DNA of 64,000 nt from Eledone cirrhosa (Eukaryota). Of this stretch, positions 1,175-64,000 are shown one piece after another. Below the pieces are notes generated by a model. That model worked only from the letters and a program-made list of their open reading frames with translations, was not told the DNA's origin and ran no database searches. The stretch spans positions 23,746,001-23,810,000 of the forward strand of contig OZ024753.1 in assembly GCA_964016885.1 (NCBI GenBank), given 5' to 3'. The first letter of the stretch is position 1; each line of letters begins with the position of its first letter. The translations under genes and the position numbers were made by a program.

Positions 1175-3583
<2,409 letters not shown>

Positions 3584-9127: not shown

Positions 9128-10265
9128 TCATTTTTTCGTGTTCAGTAGTGGTTTAAATTTTTCAATGAAGAGTTCTTCTTTATATCTGCGGAAATGTTCG
9201 TTATCCGACCATATCTTGAAGAAAGGGAAGATTGTGAATTTTCCCTTCCCGCATGATGCAAAGTGTGCACTACATGTGGTATTTCTGACTGTGGGGTCTT
9301 TAATCTGTTGTTTATGTACCCGGACTCTATCATGTAATCCCGTTCCGGTTTCCCCAATGTAATACTCTTTACACTGTGGACATGTTGCGCAATATATTAG
9401 GTTTTTCGTTTTGCAGTTCATGTTTGCATTGACCTTGAAATTATCATGGTTTTTGAAGGACAACTGTTTGCCCTCTTCGATGAGTTCACAGGTTCCACAT
9501 CTAGGGTCCCCGCATTTCGTCACTTGCATTGATTCCATGTTGGTCGTAAATTTTGCCTTGGTAATTAGTTTTTTAAGGTTGGGTGCTTGGCGTTTGCTAT
9601 AAATTATCTGTGTGTTTTTTAAGAGTGCATTCATTTTGGTAGATTGCTGTAGAATCGGGAGATACTGCTTAGCAGTTTTCACAATGTTGATGTTCCCTGG
9701 GTTGTGAGTGATGACAAAAGAGATAGCAGGGTTTTCTTTTTTATGTTGTGGGTTTGGTTTTCTCAGTGTTGTTATTGGGATGTTCTTAGCCTTGGAGATG
9801 GCTGCGTTGATGAGTTTCCTCGGGTATTCTTGTTTTTTAAGGATTTTTTTCAGGTCACATAATCTTTTTTCTTGTAGTACGGGGTGTGTTGCTATAGTGC
9901 AGATGCGCCTTGCCATGTTGAAGGGAATGTTCCTTTTCGTATGTGAGGGGTGTGCTGACCGGAAATTTAAGTATTGGTGTGTGTCAGTGGGTTTGCAAAA
10001 TAGGTCCGTTATGATATTTTCCCCTTCTTTAATGATGAGGATATCTAGAAAGGGCAGTTCCTTTTCGTTACATTCCATAGTGAATTGCATAGCTTCATGA
10101 AGCCTGTTTAAGATCGAATAAAATGTTTGTAGGTCTGTTTGGCTTCTGTTCCAGAAGATGAAGCAGTCATCTAGGTAACGTTTCCAGTTTTTATTAATGT
10201 AGAAGGCGAAGTCGTGACTGAATGTTATCTGTAGTTGGGAATATAATTTTGCCTCTAAGCGACCC
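9128..10265 (-). mobile_element. Neptune-like PLE ORF 3' half (RT C-terminus, thumb, Cys linker, GIY-YIG)
   Basis: WKRYLDDCF, LPFLDI, KPTDTHQYL, SAHPSHTK, KCGDPRCGTC, NLIYCATC..C..YYIGET, RVRVH. Confidence 0.93.
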
Positions 10266-11330
<1,065 letters not shown>

Positions 11331-14300
11331 CTCAAGAAAATCAACACCAACCTATCTTTGCTGGTCGACAAACTTGACTCCACAAATAAGGAAACCGCCA
11401 CCGGATACAAACCCTCCGAAATCGGCGACAAACTCCAAAACCTTTGCGATACTATCCAAACTATGTTCACTACTACCAACCCAGGAAAAACCAACGAAGA
11501 ACCATGTGAGATTGATTCACACAAAATGAAAATTCGAACAATTCCAAAATGGAACAAATCCCTCAGAGACAGAAAGTTCTCATTCTGGAAGATGATACAA
11601 AATCACAACAAAGCAGAGATATATGAAAAATGGCTTAACTCAACCCCTCTAACTCTCCCCCGTAAACTACAAATAAAGTCCATTCCAAATGAACCCGAAC
11701 CTCAAAGACACCTTAGGGAAAGAATGGCATTGGAAAAAATGAAGACAGAAATTGAACTTCTTAAACTGAGGGCCCAGACAAATGAGGAAAAAATCAAAAC
11801 CATCGATGAAGAGATCCTCCTGGAAATCAACAACAAAACTGAAGGCCCCAAGGTAGAGAAGATCTCCAAATTGTGGAAAGGGGACTGCAACAGAGAAGAA
11901 CTGAAATCCCTTCAACGCTGGGAAAAAAGTGCCGCTTGGTTCCTACACTATGAATCGACTTTTCAAACGGATTACACCTCCAATAACCCGTTCATAAAAA
12001 TAGGAAAACCCATAACTGAACCGCACAACAACTTCTCAAACCCCCAAGCCTCAAACAAACGAAGAAGGAAGCACCACACCGAAGATGAACTTCCCAATCT
12101 CGCTACCATAAGAAGGAACAAAAACCCAAGAAATCATCTCCCCAGAATGACATTTACAACTTTCCCCCTTCAAGGAGACACCATACCAAATCACTCAACT
12201 ACTACGCGGATTCCTCATCGTCAAACATAGGGAAAAGATACCACCGCCATGATAGATGCAACAACTTCCCCGCTTCAAGGGGACAGCAAGGTAATTACCA
12301 TTTTCTCAACTCTCACTTCCACAATACACAACAAACCCACACCACACGATACAACCAGCAACGTAGGCCACTTATAACACCACAATACAACATGGCACAT
12401 AGAAACACACACCCATACTCGCAGTACAGGAACACCCCATTCAATCTACAACCACCAACCCGAACCACATTTTACAACAACAAGGAATATAACAAACACA
12501 GGAGACCACTTAACATCAGCAGACAACTCCTCTACCCCAACCATTTTTTAGACACAGCACACAGATACAGGCAAACAAAATAACACAAGACAGGGAGGAG
12601 AAACCGATAGTAATAAAAATTATCAATCTTACTAGTGCAGAACCAACACCCAACCTTATCAACTTACTCTCCAAAGGTCTTAAATTCACACCGACCCCAC
12701 TACGTCCTAACTACTATGAAATGAAGGAAGACATCACAGACTTCTGTAGAAAGTTACGACTTAGTGAACAACTATTCGACCAGTACAATGAGGATGAATC
12801 ATTAGCCAGAAATAGAAGCAATTACACCCCTTCAAAAGGTAGAAATAAAATCCTGGACGAATTCTGTGAACACATCACAAACTTCCCTTACCAACACTTG
12901 CACAGACAAAAACACAAGCCAAACCTCAACAAGAAAGAATGGGAAGAATTAAATAGATTAAAAACCGACAGAACCATTACAATTAAAGAGGGTGATAAAG
13001 GGAGTACAGTAGTCCTAATGGAGACAGAATTCTATATCAACTTAGCGCTCTCCACTTTGGAAAACGAAACATACTACGAAAAGGCTGAACACAGAAAATT
13101 ATGAGAAACCTAAAAACTCTAATCAACCAATACAAAGAAGGACTCACTAACAAGGAATTCAGCTTCATCACAGACTTCACAAGTAAATCCAGCCTTTTCT
13201 ACGGTATCCCTAAAGTACATAAAAGCGAATCAATCAGTAAGGCATGCAAGGAAGCCACAGACATAGTCATCAATGTCCCCTCACCCAATGATCTCAAATT
13301 AAGACCTATAATAGCAGGCCCCGCTTGCGAAACGCACCGTCTTAGCAACTTCATTGATACCCTTCTCAAACCCTTCCTCAAGCACATCAAAAGCTATATA
13401 AGGGACGACCTAGATATGCTCAATCACCTCCCTAATATGCCACTTTCTGAACAAACCCTACTAGTGACGTTCGATGTAGTCAACCTATACTCCAACATCC
13501 TCCACTACCTAGGAATAGAAGCTATCCAATTCTGGCTGGATAATTTCCACAATGAACTCCCACAACGCATCAAAAAAGAATTCGTGATAGAGGGACTCAA
13601 ATTTATCTTGGAGAACAATTACTTCGTTTTCAATAACAAACCCTACAGGCAGAAATCTGGGACCGCTATGGGAACGAAAACAGCCCCTACTTATGCCAAC
13701 CTAGTCATGGGATACCTGGAAATCACCCTCTACACTAAAGTCCTAAACAAATATGGAAACACCCTCCACTTACACATTGAAAGGAACTGGAAGCGATATC
13801 TAGATGACTGCTTCATCCTTTGGCACGAAAACATCGAACAACTTAAAGAATTTCACACCCTTATAAATGGGCTCAACACAAATATTAACTTCACGATGGA
13901 ATACAGCCATCAACAACTCCCCTTCCTCGACATCCTCATTAAGATCCATAACAAAAAAATAGAAACAGACATATACTACAAGCCCACAGACTCCAAGCAA
14001 TATCTCCCCTTCAACTCTTGCCACCCTAGACACGTTAAAATCAATATTCCCTACAACTTAGCTAAGAGAATCTGTACTATAGTCTCCAATAAAAACATCT
14101 GCTACTTACGGCTACAAGAACTAAAGGACACACTCATAGGCAGGGACTACCCTGCATCACTAATTGACAATGGAATCCAACGTGCCCTAAAACTCAGTAC
14201 CCAGGACCTTAGACACCCTAAAGTAAATCAACCAGAACTAAAAGCTCTTCCATACATCTCCACACACAACCCCCTCAACAATGAGGCCTTTGACACCATC

Positions 14301-14859
14301 CTCCAGAACATCCCTGTATTGAAAAAGGACTATAGAATGAACCAAATTCTACGAACACACGATATCATAAAGAGCAAAAGACAATCCAAGTCAATGAAAA
14401 ACATCTTAACACATGCCAAAGTACTGCCAACCACAACAACGAAACCCACAGTAAAAAAAATGCGATAGACCCAACTGTGGCATTTGCATCAACCTAATAG
14501 AGGGTTCGGAATTCTATTTCAAAGATGGACAACGTTTTATAGTAAAACACAATTTCACATGTGCATCGGAAAATCTAATATATGTATTAACTTGTTCAGG
14601 TTGTCGAGAACAATAAATAGGCCAGACCAAAAACAGCCTCCGCCAACGCATGACTGTCCATAGATCCCAAATTAAAATACGGGAATACAGGAAAATACCA
14701 CTGAGTGAACACATTGATACCTGTGCCGCCTAAAATCATCCCAACTTCAGAATCTTTCCCCTCTACAAATTTAAAGATAATGCCACCCACACCCAGCGCA
14801 TCAGCAAGGAATCTTACTTCATTAACAAATACGGACCCAGTCTAAACACTTCTCCCTAA
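11331..14859 (+). mobile_element. Near full-length Neptune-like PLE ORF, disrupted (N-terminal region, RT, GIY-YIG)
   Basis: IINL...LLSKGLKFTPTP, IKEGDKGSTVV, FYGIPKVHK, LRPII, TFDVVNLYSNI, GTAMGT, WKRYLDDCF, linker CDRPNCGIC, NLIYVLTC..C..Q*IGQT. Frameshifts near 13100 and 14460, plus internal stops. Confidence 0.93.
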
Positions 14860-17385: not shown

Positions 17386-17451
17386 TATTTCATTATATAT
17401 ATTTCAGGGATATCATATTAACAATATGCTATGCCTTCCTCAGACAAAATA
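17386..17451 (-). ncRNA. Type I hammerhead ribozyme family B, in a PLE-type terminus starting at ~17346
   Basis: Minus TATTTTGT-CTGAGGA-AGG..CATATT(gtt)AATATG..CCT-GAAA-TATATA-TA^ATGAAATA. Stem I is 8 bp and stem III is palindromic. A second copy at 63692-63757 has CTGAAGA. Confidence 0.78.
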
Positions 17452-18371: not shown

Positions 18372-19690
<1,319 letters not shown>

Positions 19691-19792
19691 GTAATAATAA
19701 TAAAATTGAAGACTAAAATCCAGAGAGGGCTCGATAAGGAAAATATATATCAAATATATAAGAACCGAAGACCAAATATTTATTAAAATAAC

Positions 19793-19864
19793 AGATTAAA
19801 GTTTAAGCAAAGAATCGCTGCTTTCACCCTTAACGGGATCTTCTGAAACTAACAAAGTCAATCT
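19793..19864 (-). ncRNA. Core-variant hammerhead-like motif, family C
   Basis: Reverse complement of 21069-21140. Confidence 0.6.
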
Positions 19865-21068
19865 GTAAACGCAGAACTGGATATTTCAAAAAACGTTGCA
19901 ACCGGAGGAAGACAGGAAGACGATACTTTGGTTCATGGTGACGTTCGCTGGCAAAGAACGGGAAAAAACGAATAATACGTCATTAATAGGAGCGGTGAAA
20001 GACAATTACGTGCAAGGACAGAACCACGTTTATGGTATAAAGGTCGTAGACTAATGTTCTCTAAGTGGTGCATAGAGACGTTCTATGGCAATGAACGAAA
20101 AAAACGAAGATAATAAGTCATATGTGGAGCGTGGAGAACAATAGCGTCCAAAGACAAAACCACGTAAATGGTATAGCAGAAGTCGTAGACTAAAATTCTA
20201 ACTAGGAGACCGAATGAATCTCCGCTACAGAGTTAAGAACAAAGTAAATAAATACAATACAGAAGTAATAGGAACAAAAAATACATACACGCAAACAGAT
20301 ACGTACATACACAAGCATACGCAAAACCTTACCATAGGTATACAAAACCACGCACATATAAATATGTGTATGTGTGTATGCTTGTGTACAAATAAATAAA
20401 TAATTATATAAACGTATATAAGTAAATAAATACGTATATAACAAGCGCACACACATACCTACAAATAAATACATGAAGGTTCGAAGACGTAAGTCAACTA
20501 AAACAAGAAGTACACATATACACACACCCACCATACGCACGAACCTGCATACTCACGCAGACGCAAAACTCCCATATACACATAACCAAGCCCTAAATAC
20601 CAGAATATGTAAAAATTATACGCCAAAACAGTCAAATATACGTACGAGAAGGTATACATACCTTCACAATCATACGGGTAATATATACTTACCTATGCAA
20701 ATAAGTAAAGGAATAAACAAAACATATACTTAGCTCCTACATCAAGACGTAAATATCCACGTATAGATCGTGCTCTCCGTTAGGGTATAACGTAGGGCTG
20801 TAATACAGGAAAGTTTTGTGCAATTTATGTTTACAAGCCGAAATTGCCTCAGATTTTTTGTATAAGATGTGGTCTGTGGCGTAGAGTATTTCCAGGGCCT
20901 CAGCGGCGCAGAGGTCACATGGTCTTTTATTTCCGTTATACGATCTAGCCCTAACTAGGATCTCCCAGTGTAACTTATATTGGGTGTGGTTGTCTTTTAG
21001 ACCAAAGTATCGTCTTCCTGTCTTCCTCCGGTCGCAACGTTTTTTGAAATATCCAGTTCTGCGTTTAC

Positions 21069-21140
21069 AGATTGACTTTGTTAGTTTCAGAAGATCCCGT
21101 TAAGGGTGAAAGCAGCGATTCTTTGCTTAAACTTTAATCT
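21069..21140 (+). ncRNA. Core-variant hammerhead-like motif, family C
   Basis: AGATTGA(bulge)AGTTT-CAGAAGA-T-CCC(gttaa)GGG-T-GAAA-GCAG(cgattct)TTGC-TT^AAACT-TTAATCT. All three helices pair; the core has U4A and U10.1-U11.1. Confidence 0.6.
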
Positions 21141-21149
21141 GTTATTTTA

Positions 21150-21232
<83 letters not shown>

Positions 21233-31398: not shown

Positions 31399-31615
31399 AG
31401 TAATAATAATAAATTTGAAGACTAAAATCCAAAGAGGGCTCGATAAGGATAAATATATATCAAATATATAAGAACTGTAGAGCAAATATTTATTAAAATA
31501 ACAGATTAAAGTTTAAGCAAAGAATCGCTGCTTTCACCCTTAACGGGATCTTGACCCGTTAAGGATGAAAGCAGCCATTCCTTGCTTAAACTTTAATCTG
31601 TTATTTTAATAAATA
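31399..31615. mobile_element. Family C pLTR mini fold-back
   Basis: 31399-31552 matches 19691-19842; 31555-31615 is its inverted end; flanked by AT microsatellite. Confidence 0.85.
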
Positions 31616-31654
31616 TATATATTATATATATATTAAATATATATATATATATAT

Positions 31655-31745
<91 letters not shown>

Positions 31746-31748
<3 letters not shown>

Positions 31749-32099
31749 CTGCGGTAAGAATTTTTTCTTATATCAAAGTTTAATGGGCTTCCACTGAAGA
31801 TTTATAAGTGCCCACCTAAATATATTCTTACATGAATATATGTTAGGCTTCTACATAAACTGGAAACATTCTCCCAACTTATAGAAAACTTATAATGAAA
31901 CAATTGTTTGGAAAGAGAGATATATTTTAACTTTAATTATATCTCATAAAATAATACAACTGGCTTTCCACAAAATACATATAGTTATCACCCTAAACAC
32001 TTAAATTGGGTTATACTAACATATAACCTAATGTTTGTTGAGTGAGATGGTTACCAGTCGCAGTTTAGCGTTAAGCTATCTCTGTTATTTTATTAAATA
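31746..32099 (+). mobile_element. Solo, diverged, inverted copy of the ribozyme-bearing part of the 1-kb satellite monomer
   Basis: Reverse complement of ~33690-34041 with scattered substitutions; (AT)n on both sides. Confidence 0.9.
31789..31913 (+). ncRNA. Type I hammerhead ribozyme family D (solo copy)
   Basis: TTCCA-CTGAAGA-T-TTATAAG...CTTATAA-T-GAAA-CAATTG-TT^TGGAA. Confidence 0.78.
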
Positions 32100-32115
32100 T
32101 ATTATATATATATAT

Positions 32116-32169
<54 letters not shown>

Positions 32170-32473
32170 ATATTTATTATATATATATATATTAAATATA
32201 TATATATATATTATATATATATATATATTAAATATATATATTATATATATATATATTATATTAAATATATATATTATATATAATATATATATATATATAT
32301 ATTATATATAAATATATATATTATATATATATATATTATATATATATATATATATTATATATATATATTATATATATATTATATATATATATATTATATA
32401 TATATTATATATATATATATTATATATATATATATTATATATATATATATTATATATATATATTAAATATATA

Positions 32474-33077
32474 GTAATAATAATAAAATTGAAGACTAAA
32501 ATCCAAAGAGGGCTCGATAAGGATAAACATATATCAAATATATAAGAACCGTAGAGCAAATATTTATTAAAATAACAGATTAAAGTTTAAGCAAAGAATC
32601 GCTGCTTTCACCGTTAACGGGATCTTCTGAAACAAACAAAGTCAATCTGTAAACGCAGAACTGGATATTTCAAAAAACGTTGCAACCGGAGGAAGACAGG
32701 AAGACGATACTTTGGTTCGTGGAAACGTTCGTTGGCAAAGAACGGGAAAAAACGAATAATACGTCATTAATAGGAGCGGTGAAAAACAATTACGCGCAAA
32801 GACAGAACCACGTTAATGGTATAAAAGAGGTCGTAGACTAATGTTCTCTTAGATGGTGCATAGAGACGTTCTCAGGCAATGAACGAAAACGAAGATAATA
32901 CGTTATAATTTTAGTCTACGACTTCTGCTATACCATTTACGTGGTTTTGTCTTGGCGTGCTATTGTTCTCCACGCTCCACATATGACGTATTATCTTCGT
33001 TTTTCATTCATTGCCAGAGAACGTCTCTATGCACCACCTAAGAGAACATTAGTCTACGACCTTTTTTATACCATAAA
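32474..33077. mobile_element. Family C pLTR fold-back, cut off by the satellite array; contains an HHR-C copy at 32577-32648 (minus)
   Basis: 32474-32903 matches 19691-~20118; 32903-33077 is an inverted pLTR segment ending exactly where the array starts. Confidence 0.85.
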
Positions 33078-48000: not shown

Positions 48001-51000
48001 ATCATCAGTGGAAGCCCATTAAACTTTGATATAAGAAAAACATTTCTTAACATAGTTAAAAATCGTGTCTGTTAATTTGCTCCCTCCCGCATCGAATGAC
48101 CGGCAAATTTGAAATTCCAGCAGTTTTTGACTGAGGAAGTATTGTAGCGTCACTAAGTGGGGGGGGGGAGACAACCAAGATCCACGAAAGGAGGAAAAAA
48201 AAATAATGTACACGCGGGTTAATTAGTTTTTTCGAAAACATTATCAATCTGACTGGTAACCATCTCACTCAACAAACATTAGGTTGTATTTTAATATAAA
48301 CCCAATTTAAGTGTTTGGGGTGCTAACAATATGTATTATGTGGAAAAGCCAGTTGCATTATTTTATGAGATATAATTAAAGTTAAAATATATCTCTCTTT
48401 CCAAACAATTGTTTTATTATAAGTTTTCTACAAATTCGGAGAATATTTCCAGTTTATGTAGAAGCCTAATATACATTCATGTAAGAATATATTTAGGTGG
48501 GCGCTTATAAATCATCAGTGGAAGCCCATTAAACTTTGATATAAGAAAAACATTTCTTACCATAGTTAAAAATCGTGTCTGTTAATTTGCTCCCTCCCGC
48601 ATCGAATGACCGGCAAATTTGAAACTCCAGCAGTTTTTGTAACATCACTAAGCGGCAAGGGGAGACAACAAAGATCCTCGAAAGTAGGAACAAAAATAAT
48701 ATACACGCGGTTTAATTAGCTTTTTCGAAAACATTATCAATCCAACGTGTTAAGAACTCAATTGAAATTTAAAAAATATATATATGCGTGTATAATTTAC
48801 ACACGCATATAGATATTTTCTTAGGCTAAAATCAGAGTTTGTACCTGAATAAGAAACCGCACCTCGTAACCGTAGTAAATACGGAAAGTTATGGTTTAAA
48901 GGGCAAATGGGAATGTAAATCTCCGGCCGAATTAAGAGTAAAATATAAAACACACGCAGGTTAATTAGTTATTTCAAAACCAATATCAATTCCTCGTGTA
49001 AAGAACTCAATTAATTTAAAAAAATAAATGCATGCATGTAATTATATACATAGGCATATATATATTTTCCTAGGCTAAAAAACAGAGAAGTTACAACCAA
49101 TAAAAACCACAATATCGCACAACAGTAATAAATACGGAAGGTCAAACTTATAAGGTACCTGGAAATAAACACCTCTGGCCAATCAAGAGTAAAATATTAA
49201 TACAATAACAGAGATAGTTTAAAGCTAATCTCTGACTGGTAACCATCTCACTCAACAAACATTAGGTTGTATTTTAATATAAACCCAATTTAAGTGTTTG
49301 GGGTGCTAACAATATGTATTATGTGGAAAAGCCAGTTGCATTATTTTATGAGATATAATTAAAGTTAAAATATATCTCTCTTTCCAAACAATTGTTTCAT
49401 TATAAGTTTTCTACAAATTCGGAGAATATTTCCAGTTTATGTAGAAGCCTAATATACATTCATGTAAGAATATATTTAGGTGGGCGCTTATAAATCATCA
49501 GTGGAAGCCCATTAAACTTTGATATAAGAAAAACTTTTCTTACCATAGTTAAAAATCGTGTCTGTTAATTTGCTCCCTCCCGCATCGAATGACCGGCAAA
49601 TTTGAAATTCCAGCAGTTTTTTACTAAGGAAGTTTTGTAGCGTCACTAAGCGGCAAGGGGAGACAACCAAGATCCACGAAAGGAGGAAAAAAAAATAATA
49701 TACACGCGGGTTAATTAGCTTTTTCGAAAACATTATCAATCCAACGTGTTAAGAACTCAATTGAAATTAAAAAAATAAATATATGCGTGTATAAATTACA
49801 CACGCATATTGATATTTTCTTAGGTTAAAATCAGAGGTTGTACCTGAATAAGAAACCGCATCTCGTAACCGTAGTAAATACGGAAAGTTATGGTTTAAAG
49901 GGCAAATGGGAATGTAAATCTCCGGCCGAATTAAGAGTAAAATATAAAGCACACACAGGTTAATTAGTTATTTCAAAACCAATATCAATTCCTCGTGTAA
50001 AGAACTCAATTAATTTAAAAAAATAAATGTATGCATGTAATTATATACATAGGCATATATATATATTTTCCTAGGCTAAAAAACAGAGAAGTTACAACTA
50101 ATAAAAACCACAATATCGCACAACAGTAATAAATACGGAAGGTCAAACTTATAAGATACCTGGAAATAAACACCTCTGGCCAATCAAGAGTAAACTATTA
50201 ATACAATAACAGAGATAGTTTAAAGCTAATCTCTGACTGGTAACCATCTCACTCAACAAACATTAGGTTGTATTTTAATATAAACCCAATTTAAGTGTTT
50301 GGGGTGCTAACAATATGTATTATGTGGAAAAGCCAGTTGCATTATTTTATGAGATATAATTAAAGTTAAAATATATCTCTCTTTCCAAACAATTGTTTCA
50401 TTATAAGTTTTCTACAAATTCGGAGAATATTTCCAGTTTATGTAGAAGCCTAATATACATTCATGTAAGAATATATTTAGGTGGGCGCTTATAAATCATC
50501 AGTGGAAGCCCATTAAACTTTGATATAAGAAAAACTTTTCTTACCATAGTTAAAAATCGTGTCTGTTAATTTGCTCCCTCCCGCATCGAATGACCGGCAA
50601 ATTTGAAATTCCAGCAGTTTTTTACTAAGGAAGTATTGTAGCGTCACTAAGCGGCAAGGGGAGACAACCAAGATCCACGAAAGGAGGAAAAAAAATAATA
50701 TACACGCGGGTTAATTAGCTTTTTCGAAAACATTATCAATCCAACGTGTTAAGAACTCAATTGAAATTAAAAAAATAAATATATGCGTGTATAAATTACA
50801 CACGCATATAGATATTTTCTGAGGCTAAAATCAGAGGTTGTACCTGAATGAGAAACCGCATCTCGTAAACGTAGTAAATACGGAAAGTTATGGTTTAAAG
50901 GGGAAATGGGAATGTAAATCTCCGGCCGAATTAAGAGTAAAATATAAAACACACGCAGGTTAATTAGTTATTTCAAAACCAATATCAATTCCTCGTGTAA

Positions 51001-54000: not shown

Positions 54001-57000
54001 ACTCAATTAATTTAAAAAAATAAATGTATGCATGTAATTATATACATAGGCATATATATATATTTTCCTAGGCTAAAAGACAGAGAAGTTACAACCAATA
54101 AAAACCACAATATCGCACAACATTAATAAATACGGAAGGTCAAACTTATAAGATACCTGGAAATAAACACCTCTGGCCAATCAAGAGTAAAATATTAATA
54201 CAAAAACAGAGATAGTTTAAAGCTAATCTCTGACTGGTAACCATCTCACTCAACAAACATTAGGTTGTATTTTAATATAAACCCAATTTAAGTGTTTGGG
54301 GTGCTAACAATATGTATTATGTAGAAAAGCCAGTTGCATTATTTTATGAGATATAATTAAAGTTAAAATATATCTCTCTTTCCAAACAATTGTTTCATTA
54401 TAAGTTTTCTACAAATTCGGAGAATATTTCCAGTTTATGTAGAAGCCTAATATACATTCATGTAAGAATATATTTAGGTGGGCGCTTATAAATCATCAGT
54501 GGAAGCCCATTAAACTTTGATATAAGAAAAACATTTCTTAACATAGTTAAAAATCGTGTCTGTTAATTTGCTCCCTGCCGCATCGAATGACCGGCAAATT
54601 TGAAATTCCAGCAGTTTTTGACTGAGGAAGTATTGTAGCGTCACTAAGTGGGAGGGGGAGACAACCAAGATCCACGAAAGGAGGAAAAAAAAATAATATA
54701 CACGCGGGTTAATTAGTTTTTTCGAAAACATTATCAATCTGACTGGTAACCATCTCACTCAACAAACATTAGGTTGTATTTTAATATGAACCCAATTTAA
54801 GTGTTTGGGGTGCTAACAATATGTATTATGTGGAAAAGCCAGTTGCATTATTTTATGAGATATAATTAAAGTTAAAATATATCTCTCTTTCCAAACAATT
54901 GTTTCATTATAAGTTTTCTACAAATTCGGAGAATATTTCCAGTTTATGTAGAAGCCTAATATACATTCATGTAAGAATATATTTAGGTGGGCGCCTATAA
55001 ATCATCAGTGGAAGCCCATTAAACTTTGATATAAGAAAAACATTTCTTAACATAGTTAAAAATCGTGTCTGTTAATTTGCTCCCTCCCGCATCGAATGAC
55101 CGGCAAATTTGAAATTCCAGCAGTTTTTGACTGAGGAAGTATTGTAGCGTCACTAAGTGGGGGGGGGGAGACAACCAAGATCCACGAAAGGAGGAAAAAA
55201 AAATAATGTACACGCGGGTTAATTAGTTTTTTCGAAAACATTATCAATCTGACTGGTAACCATCTCACTCAACAAACATTAGGTTGTATTTTAATATAAA
55301 CCCAATTTAAGTGTTTGGGGTGCTAACAATATGTATTATGTGGAAAAGCCAGTTGCATTATTTTATGAGATATAATTAAAGTTAAAATATATCTCTCTTT
55401 CCAAACAATTGTTTTATTATAAGTTTTCTACAAATTCGGAGAATATTTCCAGTTTATGTAGAAGCCTAATATACATTCATGTAAGAATATATTTAGGTGG
55501 GCGCTTATAAATCATCAGTGGAAGCCCATTAAACTTTGATATAAGAAAAACATTTCTTACCATAGTTAAAAATCGTGTCTGTTAATTTGCTCCCTCCCGC
55601 ATCGAATGACCGGCAAATTTGAAACTCCAGCAGTTTTTGTAACATCACTAAGCGGCAAGGGGAGACAACAAAGATCCTCGAAAGTAGGAACAAAAATAAT
55701 ATACACGCGGTTTAATTAGCTTTTTCGAAAACATTATCAATCCAACGTGTTAAGAACTCAATTGAAATTTAAAAAATATATATATGCGTGTATAATTTAC
55801 ACACGCATATAGATATTTTCTTAGGCTAAAATCAGAGTTTGTACCTGAATAAGAAACCGCACCTCGTAACCGTAGTAAATACGGAAAGTTATGGTTTAAA
55901 GGGCAAATGGGAATGTAAATCTCCGGCCGAATTAAGAGTAAAATATAAAACACACGCAGGTTAATTAGTTATTTCAAAACCAATATCAATTCCTCGTGTA
56001 AAGAACTCAATTAATTTAAAAAAATAAATGCATGCATGTAATTATATACATAGGCATATATATATTTTCCTAGGCTAAAAAACAGAGAAGTTACAACCAA
56101 TAAAAACCACAATATCGCACAACAGTAATAAATACGGAAGGTCAAACTTATAAGGTACCTGGAAATAAACACCTCTGGCCAATCAAGAGTAAAATATTAA
56201 TACAATAACAGAGATAGTTTAAAGCTAATCTCTGACTGGTAACCATCTCACTCAACAAACATTAGGTTGTATTTTAATATAAACCCAATTTAAGTGTTTG
56301 GGGTGCTAACAATATGTATTATGTGGAAAAGCCAGTTGCATTATTTTATGAGATATAATTAAAGTTAAAATATATCTCTCTTTCCAAACAATTGTTTCAT
56401 TATAAGTTTTCTACAAATTCGGAGAATATTTCCAGTTTATGTAGAAGCCTAATATACATTCATGTAAGAATATATTTAGGTGGGCGCTTATAAATCATCA
56501 GTGGAAGCCCATTAAACTTTGATATAAGAAAAACTTTTCTTACCATAGTTAAAAATCGTGTCTGTTAATTTGCTCCCTCCCGCATCGAATGACCGGCAAA
56601 TTTGAAATTCCAGCAGTTTTTTACTAAGGAAGTTTTGTAGCGTCACTAAGCGGCAAGGGGAGACAACCAAGATCCACGAAAGGAGGAAAAAAAAATAATA
56701 TACACGCGGGTTAATTAGCTTTTTCGAAAACATTATCAATCCAACGTGTTAAGAACTCAATTGAAATTAAAAAAATAAATATATGCGTGTATAAATTACA
56801 CACGCATATTGATATTTTCTTAGGTTAAAATCAGAGGTTGTACCTGAATAAGAAACCGCATCTCGTAACCGTAGTAAATACGGAAAGTTATGGTTTAAAG
56901 GGCAAATGGGAATGTAAATCTCCGGCCGAATTAAGAGTAAAATATAAAACACACACAGGTTAATTAGTTATTTCAAAACCAATATCAATTCCTCGTGTAA

Positions 57001-58050
57001 AGAACTCAATTAATTTTAAAAAATAAATGTATGCATGTAATTATATACATAGGCATATATATATATTTTCCTAGGCTAAAAAACAGAGAAGTTACAACTA
57101 ATAAAAACCACAATATCGCACAACAGTAATAAATACGGAAGGTCAAACTTATAAGATACCTGGAAATAAACACCTCTGGCCAATCAAGAGTAAACTATTA
57201 ATACAATAACAGAGATAGTTTAAAGCTAATCTCTGACTGGTAACCATCTCACTCAACAAACATTAGGTTGTATTTTAATATAAACCCAATTTAAGTGTTT
57301 GGGGTGCTAACAATATGTATTATGTGGAAAAGCCAGTTGCATTATTTTATGAGATATAATTAAAGTTAAAATATATCTCTCTTTCCAAACAATTGTTTCA
57401 TTATAAGTTTTCTACAAATTCGGAGAATATTTCCAGTTTATGTAGAAGCCTAATATACATTCATGTAAGAATATATTTAGGTGGGCGCTTATAAATCATC
57501 AGTGGAAGCCCATTAAACTTTGATATAAGAAAAACTTTTCTTACCATAGTTAAAAATCGTGTCTGTTAATTTGCTCCCTCCCGCATCGAATGACCGGCAA
57601 ATTTGAAATTCCAGCAGTTTTTTACTAAGGAAGTATTGTAGCGTCACTAAGCGGCAAGGGGAGACAACCAAGATCCACGAAAGGAGGAAAAAAAATAATA
57701 TACACGCGGGTTAATTAGCTTTTTCGAAAACATTATCAATCCAACGTGTTAAGAACTCAATTGAAATTAAAAAAATAAATATATGCGTGTATAAATTACA
57801 CACGCATATAGATATTTTCTTAGCTTAAAATCAGAGGTTGTACCTGAATAAGAAACCGCATCTCGTAACCGTAGTAAATACGGAAAGTTATGGTTTAAAG
57901 GGCAAATGGGAATGTAAATCTCTGGCCGAATTAAGAGTAAAATATAAAACACACGTAGGTTAATTAGTTATTTCAAAACCAATATCAATTCCTCGTGTAA
58001 AGATCTCAATTAATTAAAAAAAATAAATGTATGCATGTAATTATATACAT
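33077..58050 (-). repeat. ~25-kb tandem satellite, ~1000-bp monomer (five ~510-bp deleted monomers), each monomer carrying a hammerhead motif
   Basis: Landmarks recur at a 1000-bp period (e.g. ORF-track hits 41767, 43767, 44767, 49767-51767); monomers are nearly identical; 27 HHR copies counted. Confidence 0.97.
33872..33996 (-). ncRNA. Type I hammerhead ribozyme family D, first of 27 array copies
   Basis: Minus TTCCA-CTGATGA-T-TTATAAG-[~80-nt branched insert]-CTTATAA-T-GAAA-CAATTG-TT^TGGAA. Other copies start at about 34873, 35873, 36873, 37875, 38877, 39385, 40383-45383 (every kb), 46381, 47380, 47889, 48399, 49382, 50383-52383, 53381, 54380, 54889, 55399, 56382 and 57383. Confidence 0.8.
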
Positions 58051-58327
58051 GTAAATATATATATATAATATATATATATTTAATATATATATATATATAA
58101 TATATATATATTTAATATATATATATATAATATATATATATTTAATATATATATATAATATATATATATTAAATATATATATATATATAATATATATATG
58201 TTTAATATATATATATATATATTTAATATATATATATATATATTTAATATATATTTATATATATAATATATATATATTTAATATATATATATATATAATA
58301 TATATATATTTAATATATATATATATA

Positions 58328-58364
<37 letters not shown>

Positions 58365-58682
58365 ATATATATATATATATTTAATATATATATATATATA
58401 TTTAATATATATATATATATTTTATATATATATATTTAATATATATATATATTTAATATATATATATATATTTAATATATATATATATTTAATATATATA
58501 TATTTTTAATATATATACATATATATTTAATATATATTTATTTAATATATATATATATATATTAATATATATATATATATTTAATATATATATATATATA
58601 TATTTAATATATATATATATATTTAATATACATATATATATATTTAATATATATATATTTAATATATATATATTTAATATAT
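58051..58682. repeat. AT microsatellite with TTTAA/TAA interruptions
   Basis: Directly visible. Confidence 0.95.
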
Positions 58683-58725
58683 AAAAAAGAACAAAGGAAC
58701 TATTATGACATTATAACAAGTTTAT

Positions 58726-60933: not shown

Positions 60934-63358
60934 ATTGTTATACTTTGGGAGGGTCATGTTGCCAATAAGAAACACACGCACCAGTTGCTTTCACTTCAAT
61001 TTATTATATATTTATAAATTTATAAATTTATAAATCTACAAACTTATAAATTTCTGGTTGGTTGGTTGGTTCCACAACCAGATAGTTGTTTATATATAGT
61101 CATAGTCCTTTCGTCACACACTCTGTGACCTCTTCAGTGACTGGGGGTTCCTTTCTTTGTTTCTGTGCCTTTCCTTTCTTCTGTCCTACGCCATTTTGTT
61201 TCTGTGTGTGTGTTGTGTGCTCAGTTTGCGCATGCGCCACATCCGGGTGTCTGTGTGTGTTTGTGTTCATTTATCTATTTGTTTATTTATTTACATGTTG
61301 TTGGTTGGTTGTTTGTTCTATGTGTGTGTGTGTTTTCATTTTGTCCTTAATTGTAAGTTGTGATGTTGCTGTTCCACTCATATTTTCTATTTAATTTTGG
61401 TTGTAATTCTTTTATGCTTACTGCCTCTGTAATTTGCCTAAACATTGCATCTTTTCTGTGTGTGGATTCTATTTTTATTTCTGTTCTCTAATTTACCCTT
61501 GTGTTCTATCTTAGCATGTTGGTAGAGTACAGATGATTCTTTATTATCTTGAAGGTCTCGCCAGTGTTCATTTATCCGTTCCCCTATACTACGAGCTGTC
61601 TCACCTATGGACACTATATTTTTGTTTCTACATTGTCCTTCAGTACATCTTATGCTATACACTACATTTCTAGTTTTACAGTTAATATGGGGGCTTATTT
61701 TACAGGTTATACATTTCTTATCTATACATGAGGGTCTTTGGAACGGGTATGTCTTGCTAATAAGTGTTTTTACAGAGGTACCTGGTCTTTCTACTATCTT
61801 AATATTGAGTTTATGTTTATTTAGGGCCCTTCTAAATGTGTAGGCTAGTTCGCCTCTAGGGGTTGTATTGATGAACATTACACTCTGGTATTTATTGCTA
61901 TCATACCATGAGTTTATTCTATTGGCCTTGTTCCTAGTTCTTTCTATTCTATTCCAAAATTTGCTCCTATACAAGGGGCAGGTCCCATTTATGTCATTAT
62001 TTACCATTTTTTCCCATTTGGTTCTGGCTCCTCTATACACTCTGATTCTATCTCTCTGATTGTAGCCAGAGAACTGCATACGGTGGATGAAGTGTTGTAT
62101 GTGTCTCTCTAGTTCTTCGGGGTTGCACATGCGGGACACATTTCTCATCACCCGTACCAAATCCGCAATCAGTATGTTGATTTTGGTATGGTCCGAAATG
62201 GCCGAGTTTCGGTGGATCAGATGTTTGGAAGTCATGGGTTTGGCATAATGGGGATGGAGGATTTGTTTTTGGTTGTTAATGGTATCTAACCAGAGCTCTG
62301 TGACTAGTACAGGTAATCGATGGTTGGGGTGTCTACTTGGGTAGTCTATAGTAACTCTAATGCTCTGGTGGATGGAGTTTGCTATTTGCTGGATGCTTTC
62401 CATTGTGTTTTTCTCTAGTTCCTGACTGTTCTCTAGTGGGGGTGTCTTAACTACGATGTTTATATCATCTACGTAGCGGGAGTACATTATCAGGGTTAAG
62501 CTGTCTTCTAATTGTTCTTTAAGTTTAAGTTTAAGTCTACTGTCCCACCATACCATGAATAAGTTAGCTATGTCGCCTGCAATGCTAACACCAATGGCTG
62601 CTCCTTCCTCTTGGGCATATGTTTTTCCATTAAATTTGAACATATGTTCCTTAAGGGTTAATTTTATGCTGGCCCCTACCGCATGTGCAATCATTTTCTT
62701 CAGTTCATCGTGGTTTTCGGGTGTCCGTATGGCTCTGGTCCACCCGTTCCATCTATCTGTGTGGGTCTTCTTGGCCATTGAGGTAATGGTAAGTGGTCTG
62801 CCTCTTGCTGGTCTTGTAGGGCACAGGTTGCTAAGGTCATAAGTGTCTAGGTAACTATTACTATGGGTAAGCTTAAGTAGAAGTCCCAGCTCACTGGTAT
62901 CAATCCCACGGAACTTAACCTTGCTCTCGCTGATCATTTCTACGCATTTCTCCACAGTAAAATCCACGTCAATAGATGGATACAGGGACACAACATCCAT
63001 ACTGCCTATTATGCAGTTTGTTAGGTCCCCAGATCGGTTACTCACGCCGATTCTGCTGAGGAGGTCCTCCGTGCTGTCACATACATCTGGGGACATCTCA
63101 ATGATGGGGCGTATGATCAGGGAGAGGAAGTAGGACAGTCTGTAGTTACTAGCAATGTTAGCTCCACAGACTGGCCGTGTTGGTGGTCCCGCGACAGGGT
63201 CACAGCCCGTTTTATGGTCTTTTCGAAGCCCATACAACGCCGGCACGTCATTGTACCAGGCCTGGAAGTTGTTGGCAGTCCTTTTGTTGGGCTGCATTAT
63301 ATTCGTCCACATCACCATATGGGCATTGAGGGCTTTTTCTCTATCCTCATGCTCCTGT
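60934..63358 (-). mobile_element. PLE family A, 5'-truncated: RT + GIY-YIG (ORF 61438-63318, frameshift near the 3' end, true stop ~61347) + pLTR 60934-61346
   Basis: LYGLRKDHK, PTRPVCGA, SMDVVSLYPSI, YAQEEGAAIG, YSRYVDDI, CIDKKCITC, VVYSIRC...SIGETARS. A 2-bp deletion relative to the 2806-3093 copy shifts the frame. Confidence 0.94.
61098..61142 (-). ncRNA. Minimal type I hammerhead ribozyme, PLE family A
   Basis: Identical to 962-1006 on the minus strand; sense to the PLE ORF. Confidence 0.8.
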
Positions 63359-63383
63359 GTATAAATTATATATATATATATAT

Positions 63384-63538
<155 letters not shown>

Positions 63539-63650
63539 ATATTATATATATATATATTATATATATATTATATATATATATATATTATATAATATATATT
63601 ATATATATATATTATATATATATATATATTATATATATATATATATTATA

Positions 63651-64000
63651 CGATATTAAATAAATGGAAACTATATTTATAAAACCATATTTATTTCATT
63701 ATATATATTTCAGGGATATCATATTAAAAATATGTTATGCCTTCTTCAGACAAAATACAATATAAACAGTCTTATAAATAGATAGATTTGACATACCTTT
63801 CAACTTCAACTTCCATTTAAAAAGTTTAACATATGTTTTATATAAAAGGCATAACATATTTTTAATATGATATCCCTGCAATATATATAATGAAATAAAT
63901 ATGGTTTTATAAATATAGTTTCCATTTATTTAATATCGTAAATATACTCCAAATACTTGTTGAGTGCTTTTATATCAGTTATAAATATTTACTCGTTGTA
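63651..64000. mobile_element. Family B pLTR fold-back
   Basis: 63653-63798 matches 17347-17490; 63846-63940 is the inverted copy, followed by a tail. Confidence 0.8.
63692..63757 (-). ncRNA. Type I hammerhead ribozyme family B
   Basis: Minus TATTTTGT-CTGAAGA-AGG...CCT-GAAA-TATATA-TA^ATGAAATA. Confidence 0.78.

Follow-up and report, generated by a model that had tools for sequence, protein, structure and literature searches.

A Dispersed Repeat of Eledone cirrhosa with a Predicted Hammerhead and Its Likely Mobilization by a Hydra-Clade Penelope-Like Element

Organization of the Locus

The stretch of DNA analyzed here (the window; 64,000 nucleotides of Eledone cirrhosa contig OZ024753.1) holds a solo copy of a hammerhead-bearing repeat, family S, a long tandem array of the same repeat on the opposite strand, and several insertions of a Penelope-like element (PLE), family C. 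The relevant features, in window positions, are as follows:

19690–21000, minus strand: inverted tailed 3′ portion of family C, extending into the last part of the endonuclease-coding sequence (by comparison with the full element L061)
21001–21157, plus strand: sense piece of family C with a tailless end
21084–21132, plus strand: variant hammerhead of family C (core CAGAAGA, U.U)
31400–31615, both orientations: short family C insertion, made of an inverted tailed piece (31400–31552) and a sense tailless piece (31555–31615)
31609–31747, no strand: target (TA)n run preceding the solo copy
31746–32096, plus strand: solo copy, a 5′-truncated family S insertion (unit positions ~642–991) of a young dispersed subfamily
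31789–31913, plus strand: predicted type I hammerhead of the solo copy (sequence and fold prediction)
31789–31793 with 31909–31913, plus strand: its stem I
31794–31800, plus strand: 5′ half of its core, followed by U10.1 at 31801
31802–31808 with 31889–31895, plus strand: its stem II, enclosing a branched insert
31896, plus strand: U11.1, followed by GAAA at 31897–31900
31901–31906, plus strand: palindromic helix III, with predicted cleavage after 31908 (GUU)
32062–32099, plus strand: upstream half of the end signal common to family C (sequence comparison)
32097–32473, no strand: target (TA)n run following the solo copy
32474–33077, both orientations: family C at the 3′ side of the array, inverted and tailed at 32474–32907 and in sense at 32902–33077
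33077–58066, minus strand: family S tandem array, ~25 units of 1000 bp
48621–48643, minus strand: 15-bp deletion junction in one array unit
55621–55643, minus strand: second copy of this junction, in the 7-kb duplicate
58042–58683, no strand: (TA)n run at the 5′-truncated array end

The first-pass annotation had described the solo as a diverged copy of ~350 bp, inverted relative to the array and embedded in (AT)n, and this description is borne out: the copy lies on the plus strand between two (TA)n runs and is 90.7–92.6% identical to the array units, which lie on the minus strand. Its best genome matches (40 scored of 2,716 candidates) reach 97–98% identity and are found on many contigs, and in a tree of S modules it belongs to a young clade distinct from that of the array (97/87). 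An origin of the solo by local inversion of the array is ruled out, given its 98% identity to copies on many contigs versus 92% to the array, and its separate clade.

Dispersed Copies of Family S

Family S is a non-coding dispersed repeat of ~1 kb (unit of 991–1000 bp, GC content of 32%, longest Met-ORF of 32–60 aa). Its end 20-mer has 2,318 exact copies in the genome, and an internal 23-mer has 850. The 3′ end falls at unit position 991 in 30/30 loci picked by the internal 23-mer, which correspond to 25 places and 24 independent insertions, and is followed in them by TA-run sequence, degenerate in one case (L111). A second sample comes from contig C1, where the initial 100 matches to the end motif were merged into 85 insertions, leaving out second dimer members and one duplicated locus, and keeping four loci (L210, L230, L236, and L245) whose chains were mis-walked by the script. 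In this sample, TA repeats are present at the 3′ side of 82/85 insertions and within 30 nt of the 5′ side of 74/85; the 5′ ends range from position 1 to 957, and 19 insertions exceed one unit. All this takes place inside (TA)n, where target-site duplications cannot be told from the repeat itself. The dispersed copies show what the first-pass annotation proposed to look for, namely a constant 3′ end, 5′ truncation of variable extent, and flanking (TA)n, and the two outcomes that this annotation had set against them—random ends, or a solo that is a mere local inversion fragment—are both excluded by the fixed 3′ end and by the 98%-identical copies on many contigs.

Two sister families, S2 (~693–699 bp, 65% identity to S over 656 columns) and S3 (~712 bp), exhibit the same insertion behavior. 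The S unit owes its greater length to an internal duplication of ~250 bp (unit positions 1–262 and 249–509, 79% identity), in which the downstream half of the end signal described below is repeated. Family S has almost certainly spread by retroposition, and the data support its being a non-autonomous partner inserted into (TA)n.

A Predicted Hammerhead with a Very Long Stem II

Each S unit holds a predicted hammerhead with the core CUGA[U/A/C]GA, U10.1 and U11.1, and ~95 nt between the core halves, for which cleavage is predicted after GUU, at unit position 804. This hammerhead was not found by Rfam at the gathering threshold, and a short-loop hammerhead scan also missed it, the motif being recovered once a long stem II was allowed. 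Standard searches thus seem to overlook hammerheads whose stem II is very long. Position N7, the one free position of the hammerhead core, varies among S subfamilies (U in 56, A in 54, and C in 10). In S, S2, and S3 alike, helix III consists of a palindrome or includes one, and across seven sequences of these three families, three pairs change on both sides, with a covariation score that is reached by 0/500 shuffles and is inflated by the kinship of the seven sequences. The hammerhead fold of S lies 1.5–5.4 kcal/mol above the free minimum. The hammerhead is likely to be active in vivo.

At the position of U10.1–U11.1, S2 has an A-U pair, with a GUC triplet, and S3 a G.U, with GUA. The first-pass annotation was right in that S and C both hold U10.1–U11.1 hammerheads, but the mismatch is not diagnostic of kinship: U.U as a family marker tying S to C was rejected, given the A-U and G.U of the sister families and the presence of U.U in other repeats.

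The 5′ stops of S accumulate just after the predicted cleavage site. The bin at unit positions 805–824 receives 15 stops in 89 passes at risk versus 66/2689 in the other 20-nt bins, and the preceding bin (785–804) receives 0/74. The enrichment is also observed against the other bins containing ATATAT (15/303; Fisher p = 9e-4), and again in 43 loci fetched after the idea was formed (10/42; p = 0.011 versus the ATATAT bins). The bin overlaps an ATATAT and GAGAGA microhomology, and p is 0.004 once two GA-flanked cases are removed. The replicate in S2 is not significant (3/23, p = 0.056). This pile-up fits run-off of the reverse transcriptase (RT) from hammerhead-cut RNA, while a transcription start at 805–824 would result in the same pattern. 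For the anole PLE, reads at the hammerhead cleavage site are reported not to have been found (PMC11167929).

Family C, a Hydra-Clade PLE

In the full family C element (L061), the pLTRs lie 3.26 kb apart and hold the hammerhead, whose core, CAGAAGA, is a U4A variant with U.U. Its protein consists of an RT followed by a C-terminal GIY-YIG domain, with YRDD at residue ~349 and YIG at ~601, and bears the motifs RLRWR and DKT, a CxCX5C linker, and CDLC and CKH after YIG, with no CCHH. Intact frames of 713 aa were counted by eye in about 25/150 C matches. Pfam returned no RT or GIY-YIG match on the C pieces, and the RT core aligns to the RT of a PLE in the window (E 9e-6). Family C inserts into (TA)n and has two fixed ends ~95 nt apart; an inverted tailed piece abuts 10/28 tailless C insertions, and all 10 such pieces end at the tail.

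On these motifs, family C is a Hydra-clade PLE and not a Naiad. The assignment is based on the motifs and on a by-eye match to a published alignment rather than on a tree, and the 344 relatives returned by a homologue search, almost all of them without a name, were left out of it. According to a comparative PLE study (PMC8557442), Hydra PLEs resemble C in their single ORF, C-terminal GIY-YIG, DKT, RW motif, and CxCX5C, as well as in CxxC and CxH around conserved E and N, the (TA)n target, the hammerhead, and the tail. Family C differs from them in its tail (~95 nt versus 30–40), in the distance between its pLTRs (about 3.3 kb versus less than 3 kb), and in the U4A change of its hammerhead core. 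Naiads share with C the (TA)n target, partial tandems, inversions, and tails, but they are characterized by an N-terminal endonuclease (EN), DKA, and CCHH, all three absent in C, and they are reported to lack canonical hammerheads (PMC8557442). Consequently, the "Naiad-type" partner of the first-pass annotation is not supported, since the C-terminal GIY-YIG, the DKT, and the missing CCHH of family C are Hydra motifs.

The 5′ ends of the short C insertions (L129–L158) cluster at the 5′ edge of the C hammerhead (reference positions 429–448). In several of these insertions, the base upstream is a variant one, a possible sign of a splice junction or of a transcript start.

A Signal Common to S and C

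The end motif reported for the solo is confirmed at 32081–32099, and in family C it is located at 21138–21156 and 31597–31615 on the plus strand and at 19777, 31487, and 32561 on the minus strand; these six matches in the window compare with 0.13 expected, so that the near-identity of the solo and family C ends noticed in the first pass is real. However, the 19-mer alone overstates the match. The T that gives the solo its TTATTTTA is a private G-to-T change (G is present in 86/87 distinct S 3′ modules), which means that the typical S/C match is 17/19 and that the 18/19 of the solo counts this private T; furthermore, the final 6–7 bases are indistinguishable from the (TA)n target.

The similarity is longer than the 19-mer, continuing beyond the insertion end into the C tail and into the next S unit. 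Up to 36/44 bases are identical, straddling the insertion end and in register. S junction variants score 38–50 against C, values reached by 0–1/3000 shuffles, and none of 28,447 background windows scores 38 or more. For 42 end clusters, some of which are internal pieces of S, downstream sequence could be included in the comparison; the score is 50 for C, 49 for sister S2, and 29 for the cluster that follows them, so C is first among the non-S ends (50 versus at most 29). With the upstream half only, C scores 31 versus at most 19 for the other end clusters (63 clusters in all). The downstream half (an AU-rich stretch followed by [AG]CUC[CU]) is common to many (TA)n-targeting families of this genome, and it therefore points to the clade and not to C, while the upstream half points to C. 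The sister families are less similar to C, S2 not significantly (score 15) and S3 weakly (29–31).

The AU-rich and [AG]CTC[CT] motif occurs immediately 3′ of the fixed end in about a dozen (TA)n-targeting families and at both C ends, in many cases paired with a GAG further on, and a similar one is present in a coral Hydra consensus of a published supplement (PMC8557442). It is a candidate for a clade-wide RT start signal. The idea that S2 and S3 conserve a hairpin in their tails was rejected, as only the ACTC motif is kept.

Beyond the 44-nt signal, comparison of the S unit with the full C element returned only low-complexity matches (best E 2e-4, 59% identity). S was joined to a PLE ORF without intervening (TA)n in 0/133 loci, a profile of S and S2 over the fetched loci found only the sister S3, and no joined ORF was found for the three sister families (65–77% alike) in the loci seen. 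With a 44-base signal in register and nothing else that aligns, S gives the impression of a SINE-style mimic and not of a fragment of a pLTR. The first-pass annotation had left the choice between a pLTR-derived unit and a non-autonomous partner: the partner inserted into (TA)n stands, the pLTR origin finds nothing to align but the 44-nt signal, and the copies attached to a PLE ORF that it suggested looking for did not turn up among the 133 S loci.

Direct contacts between both families are rare, namely one clear and one ambiguous chimera in 85 S insertions and one in 28 S2 insertions. In L238, a degenerate C end is joined to S at the common motif, and in L259 an inverted C tail is joined directly to S2, both without (TA)n. 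The ambiguous case is L210 (G000:C1:90087600-90090500), where two short S units (816–991 and 823–991) and then a full unit adjoin an inverted tailed C piece. In L207, S adjoins a non-C repeat. A genome pattern search for one type of C/S junction gave 0 matches, with a pattern that would not match L210 itself. Unlike C, family S lacks a tailed end, and inversions are very scarce in it.

The anole PLE protein initiates cDNA synthesis internally, at two positions of its RNA by which the tail is defined, and this initiation requires RNA downstream of these positions (PMC11167929). By analogy, the straddling signal of S may be an RT start site, of which the solos would lack the second half. The solo of this locus, missing the downstream half of the end signal, would then be a dead-end copy.

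A Probable Transfer from Array to Dispersed Copy

The array contains three partial duplications of ~510 bp and a 7-kb higher-order duplication (99.1% identity). The 5′ halves of its hammerhead cores read CTGATGA in 26/26 cases, and the matched 3′ halves are intact in 24/25. Its 5′ end lies at unit position ~132 against (TA)n, whereas its 3′ end is cut at ~605, where family C is fused to it at 33077 without (TA)n. This fusion is likely a deletion junction; it was discarded as proof of template switching, as its orientation and 2–3 nt of microhomology fit a deletion equally well.

In the tree, the array nests inside a dispersed S subfamily. An array-type 30-mer has 20/32 of its genome matches in this array and the others in singles or a dimer. 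The array forms one clade in this tree, but when closer copies are added, two dispersed loci (L239 and L315) fall inside it, for which reason the idea of the array as a dead end was dropped. L239 is a dispersed dimer on contig C1. The 15-bp deletion junction exists in three copies genome-wide, two in the array and one in L239, whose upstream unit holds both the deletion and a linked substitution. Moreover, L239 carries all 15 array-fixed variants, its two units differ at sites that are variable within the array, and its deleted unit is free of the later private changes of the array unit. There is a strong likelihood that the array was the source of L239, the simplest reading being that a multimeric transcript of the array served as the template, although it is possible that the deletion came from an unassembled source array or from ectopic conversion. 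Except for L239, within-dimer distances do not separate circular from multimeric templates. The link between dispersed insertion and array formation envisaged in the first pass is accordingly retained through L239, with its 15-bp deletion and 15 variants, and not through the solo, which belongs to a different clade.

As for the growth of the array, only 23/104 S unit passes were completed. This makes 25 units in one event implausible—an array made in a single RT run was rejected on these grounds—and argues for growth at the DNA level from a short seed.

Proposed Mechanism and Alternative Explanations

The solo was probably inserted through target-primed reverse transcription of a hammerhead repeat by a Hydra-clade RT/GIY-YIG protein, most likely that of family C. 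That the driver of S is a Hydra-clade PLE is very likely; with more reserve, it can be narrowed down to family C itself. According to this model, tandem S copies would be transcribed, and the Hydra protein would recognize the junction-straddling signal, nick (TA)n, and start the cDNA internally, at unit position ~991. With such an internal start, only templates with downstream sequence (a tandem, a cut monomer running from 805 to 804, or a circle) would work. The cDNA would stop variably, often at the 5′ end made by the hammerhead, giving rise to solos and partial dimers. One partial tandem would have grown by unequal exchange at the DNA level into the 25-unit array, whose read-through RNA would have been copied back out at least once, into L239.

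Tentatively, and with the balance not quite in its favor, S, S2, and S3 could be regarded as a long-lived lineage of SINE-like partners of PLEs, which would hold a long-loop hammerhead of its own and mimic only the start signal of a Hydra RT. This signal would be complete only across the unit junction, hence the need of tandems for mobility, and insertions would seed satellites while satellites act as the source of insertions. If true, hammerhead cleavage in the germ line would have left its trace in the genome as the 5′-end pile-up.

Among the alternatives to a family C driver, the one that best survives is another (TA)n-targeting family, of Hydra or Neptune type, the likeness to C being then the product of a clade-wide start signal and AT-rich chance. 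It is an unlikely explanation, although several observations would agree with it: the downstream motif is common to many families, long stem II hammerheads are apparent by eye in the Hydra-like L196 (with CAATTG as helix III) and L198/L074, S2 does not match C, and S is devoid of the C tail and inversions. The preference for family C comes from the upstream half, which fits it far better (31 versus at most 19 across 63 clusters), from the C/S chimera at the common motif, and from the fact that C is abundant and has intact frames. The genome contains at least six further Hydra-like families, of which only some were sampled for comparison with S.

It is considerably less probable that an autonomous PLE, extinct or unsampled, is the parent of the S unit, which would then be its detached pLTR or 3′ UTR. 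PLE-type hammerheads combine a short helix I with a long helix II and a helix III that is palindromic (PMC4209133), retrozymes of Xenopus are described as homologous to pLTRs (bioRxiv 10.64898/2026.07.22.740005), and a remote pLTR ancestry is possible. Nevertheless, homology to C is alignable over no more than 44 nt, the profile of S and S2 recovered nothing but S3 from the fetched loci, 0/133 S loci are joined to a PLE ORF, and the three sister families, 65–77% alike and with no joined ORF in the loci seen, indicate a long independent history. Finally, a DNA-level element associated with satellites or microsatellites, spread by recombination or rolling-circle replication and with an incidental hammerhead and end motif, accounts for the duplication of the array itself (the 7-kb block at 99.1%), but it is hardly tenable for the dispersed copies, being largely refuted by their fixed 3′ end and opposed by their polar 5′ truncation, the conserved and covarying hammerhead core, and an architecture that matches PLE insertions.

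Relation to Known Retrozymes and PLE Partners

Non-LTR retrozymes with PLEs as their proposed driver have already been published (PMC7229834; bioRxiv 10.64898/2026.07.22.740005). They are, like S, non-coding, low-GC tandem units with a type I hammerhead each, dispersed as monomers and locally present as multimers, and HHR_Amex2 of the axolotl provides a known case of U.U mismatch where helix II begins, as in S. The differences concern the unit size (~1000 bp in S versus typically 150–450 bp, the largest family in the preprint having 972 bp), stem II (~95 nt and branched in S versus canonical helix sizes with a loop 1–loop 2 contact), and the link to PLEs, which in S is a 44-nt start-site signal and in the Xenopus retrozymes of the 2026 preprint a pLTR-wide homology. 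S further differs from the published non-LTR retrozymes in that a strict 3′ end, truncation from the 5′ side, and insertion into (TA)n have been established copy by copy. From its sequence, S would work like a retrozyme, but it departs from retrozymes in unit size, canonical fold, and pLTR homology. The long helix II and palindromic helix III are known from PLE hammerheads (PMC4209133).

The non-autonomous Chlamys elements, such as MRC1, provide another parallel, since they are themselves partners of PLEs, with head-to-tail insertions and 3′-end similarity to autonomous families (PMC8557442). MRC1-type elements, however, come from a green alga (Chlamydomonas) and from a clade with an N-terminal EN and mostly without hammerheads, whereas S is an animal element with a Hydra-clade partner and a hammerhead (PMC8557442). 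A literature search, which is not proof of absence, found nothing on family S or on hammerheads with a stem II of ~95 nt in PLE partners.

The movement of animal retrozymes, by PLEs and via circles, has so far been proposed rather than shown; the 2026 preprint argues for it from co-occurrence and from pLTR homology in Xenopus (bioRxiv 10.64898/2026.07.22.740005). For family S, a candidate enzyme that has intact copies can be named, a short candidate signal lies in register with the insertion end, and one event from array to dispersed copy has been traced, which makes the question of movement directly testable in vitro.

Other PLEs of the Window and the Genome

Three further pieces of PLE ORFs are located in the window at 9128–10294 (minus strand), 13089–14468 (plus), and 61438–63567 (minus), with a GIY-YIG match at E 1.6e-6, RVT_1 matches at E 1.9e-6 and 5e-4, and ends unlike those of S. 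They are accompanied by canonical hammerheads at 647–675, 967–995, 3387–3415, and 61109–61137. Another hammerhead-bearing (TA)n family is present at 17402–17443 and 63708–63749 (minus strand), and in L195 a related end comes after a Hydra-like endonuclease.

Elsewhere in the genome, the Hydra-like autonomous families L196, L198, and L074 hold what appear by eye to be hammerheads with a long stem II (~60–85 nt), and helix III of L196 (G000:C1:75480000-75483300) is CAATTG, the same as in S. A 310-bp tandem repeat found in both L063 and L068 is unrelated to S.
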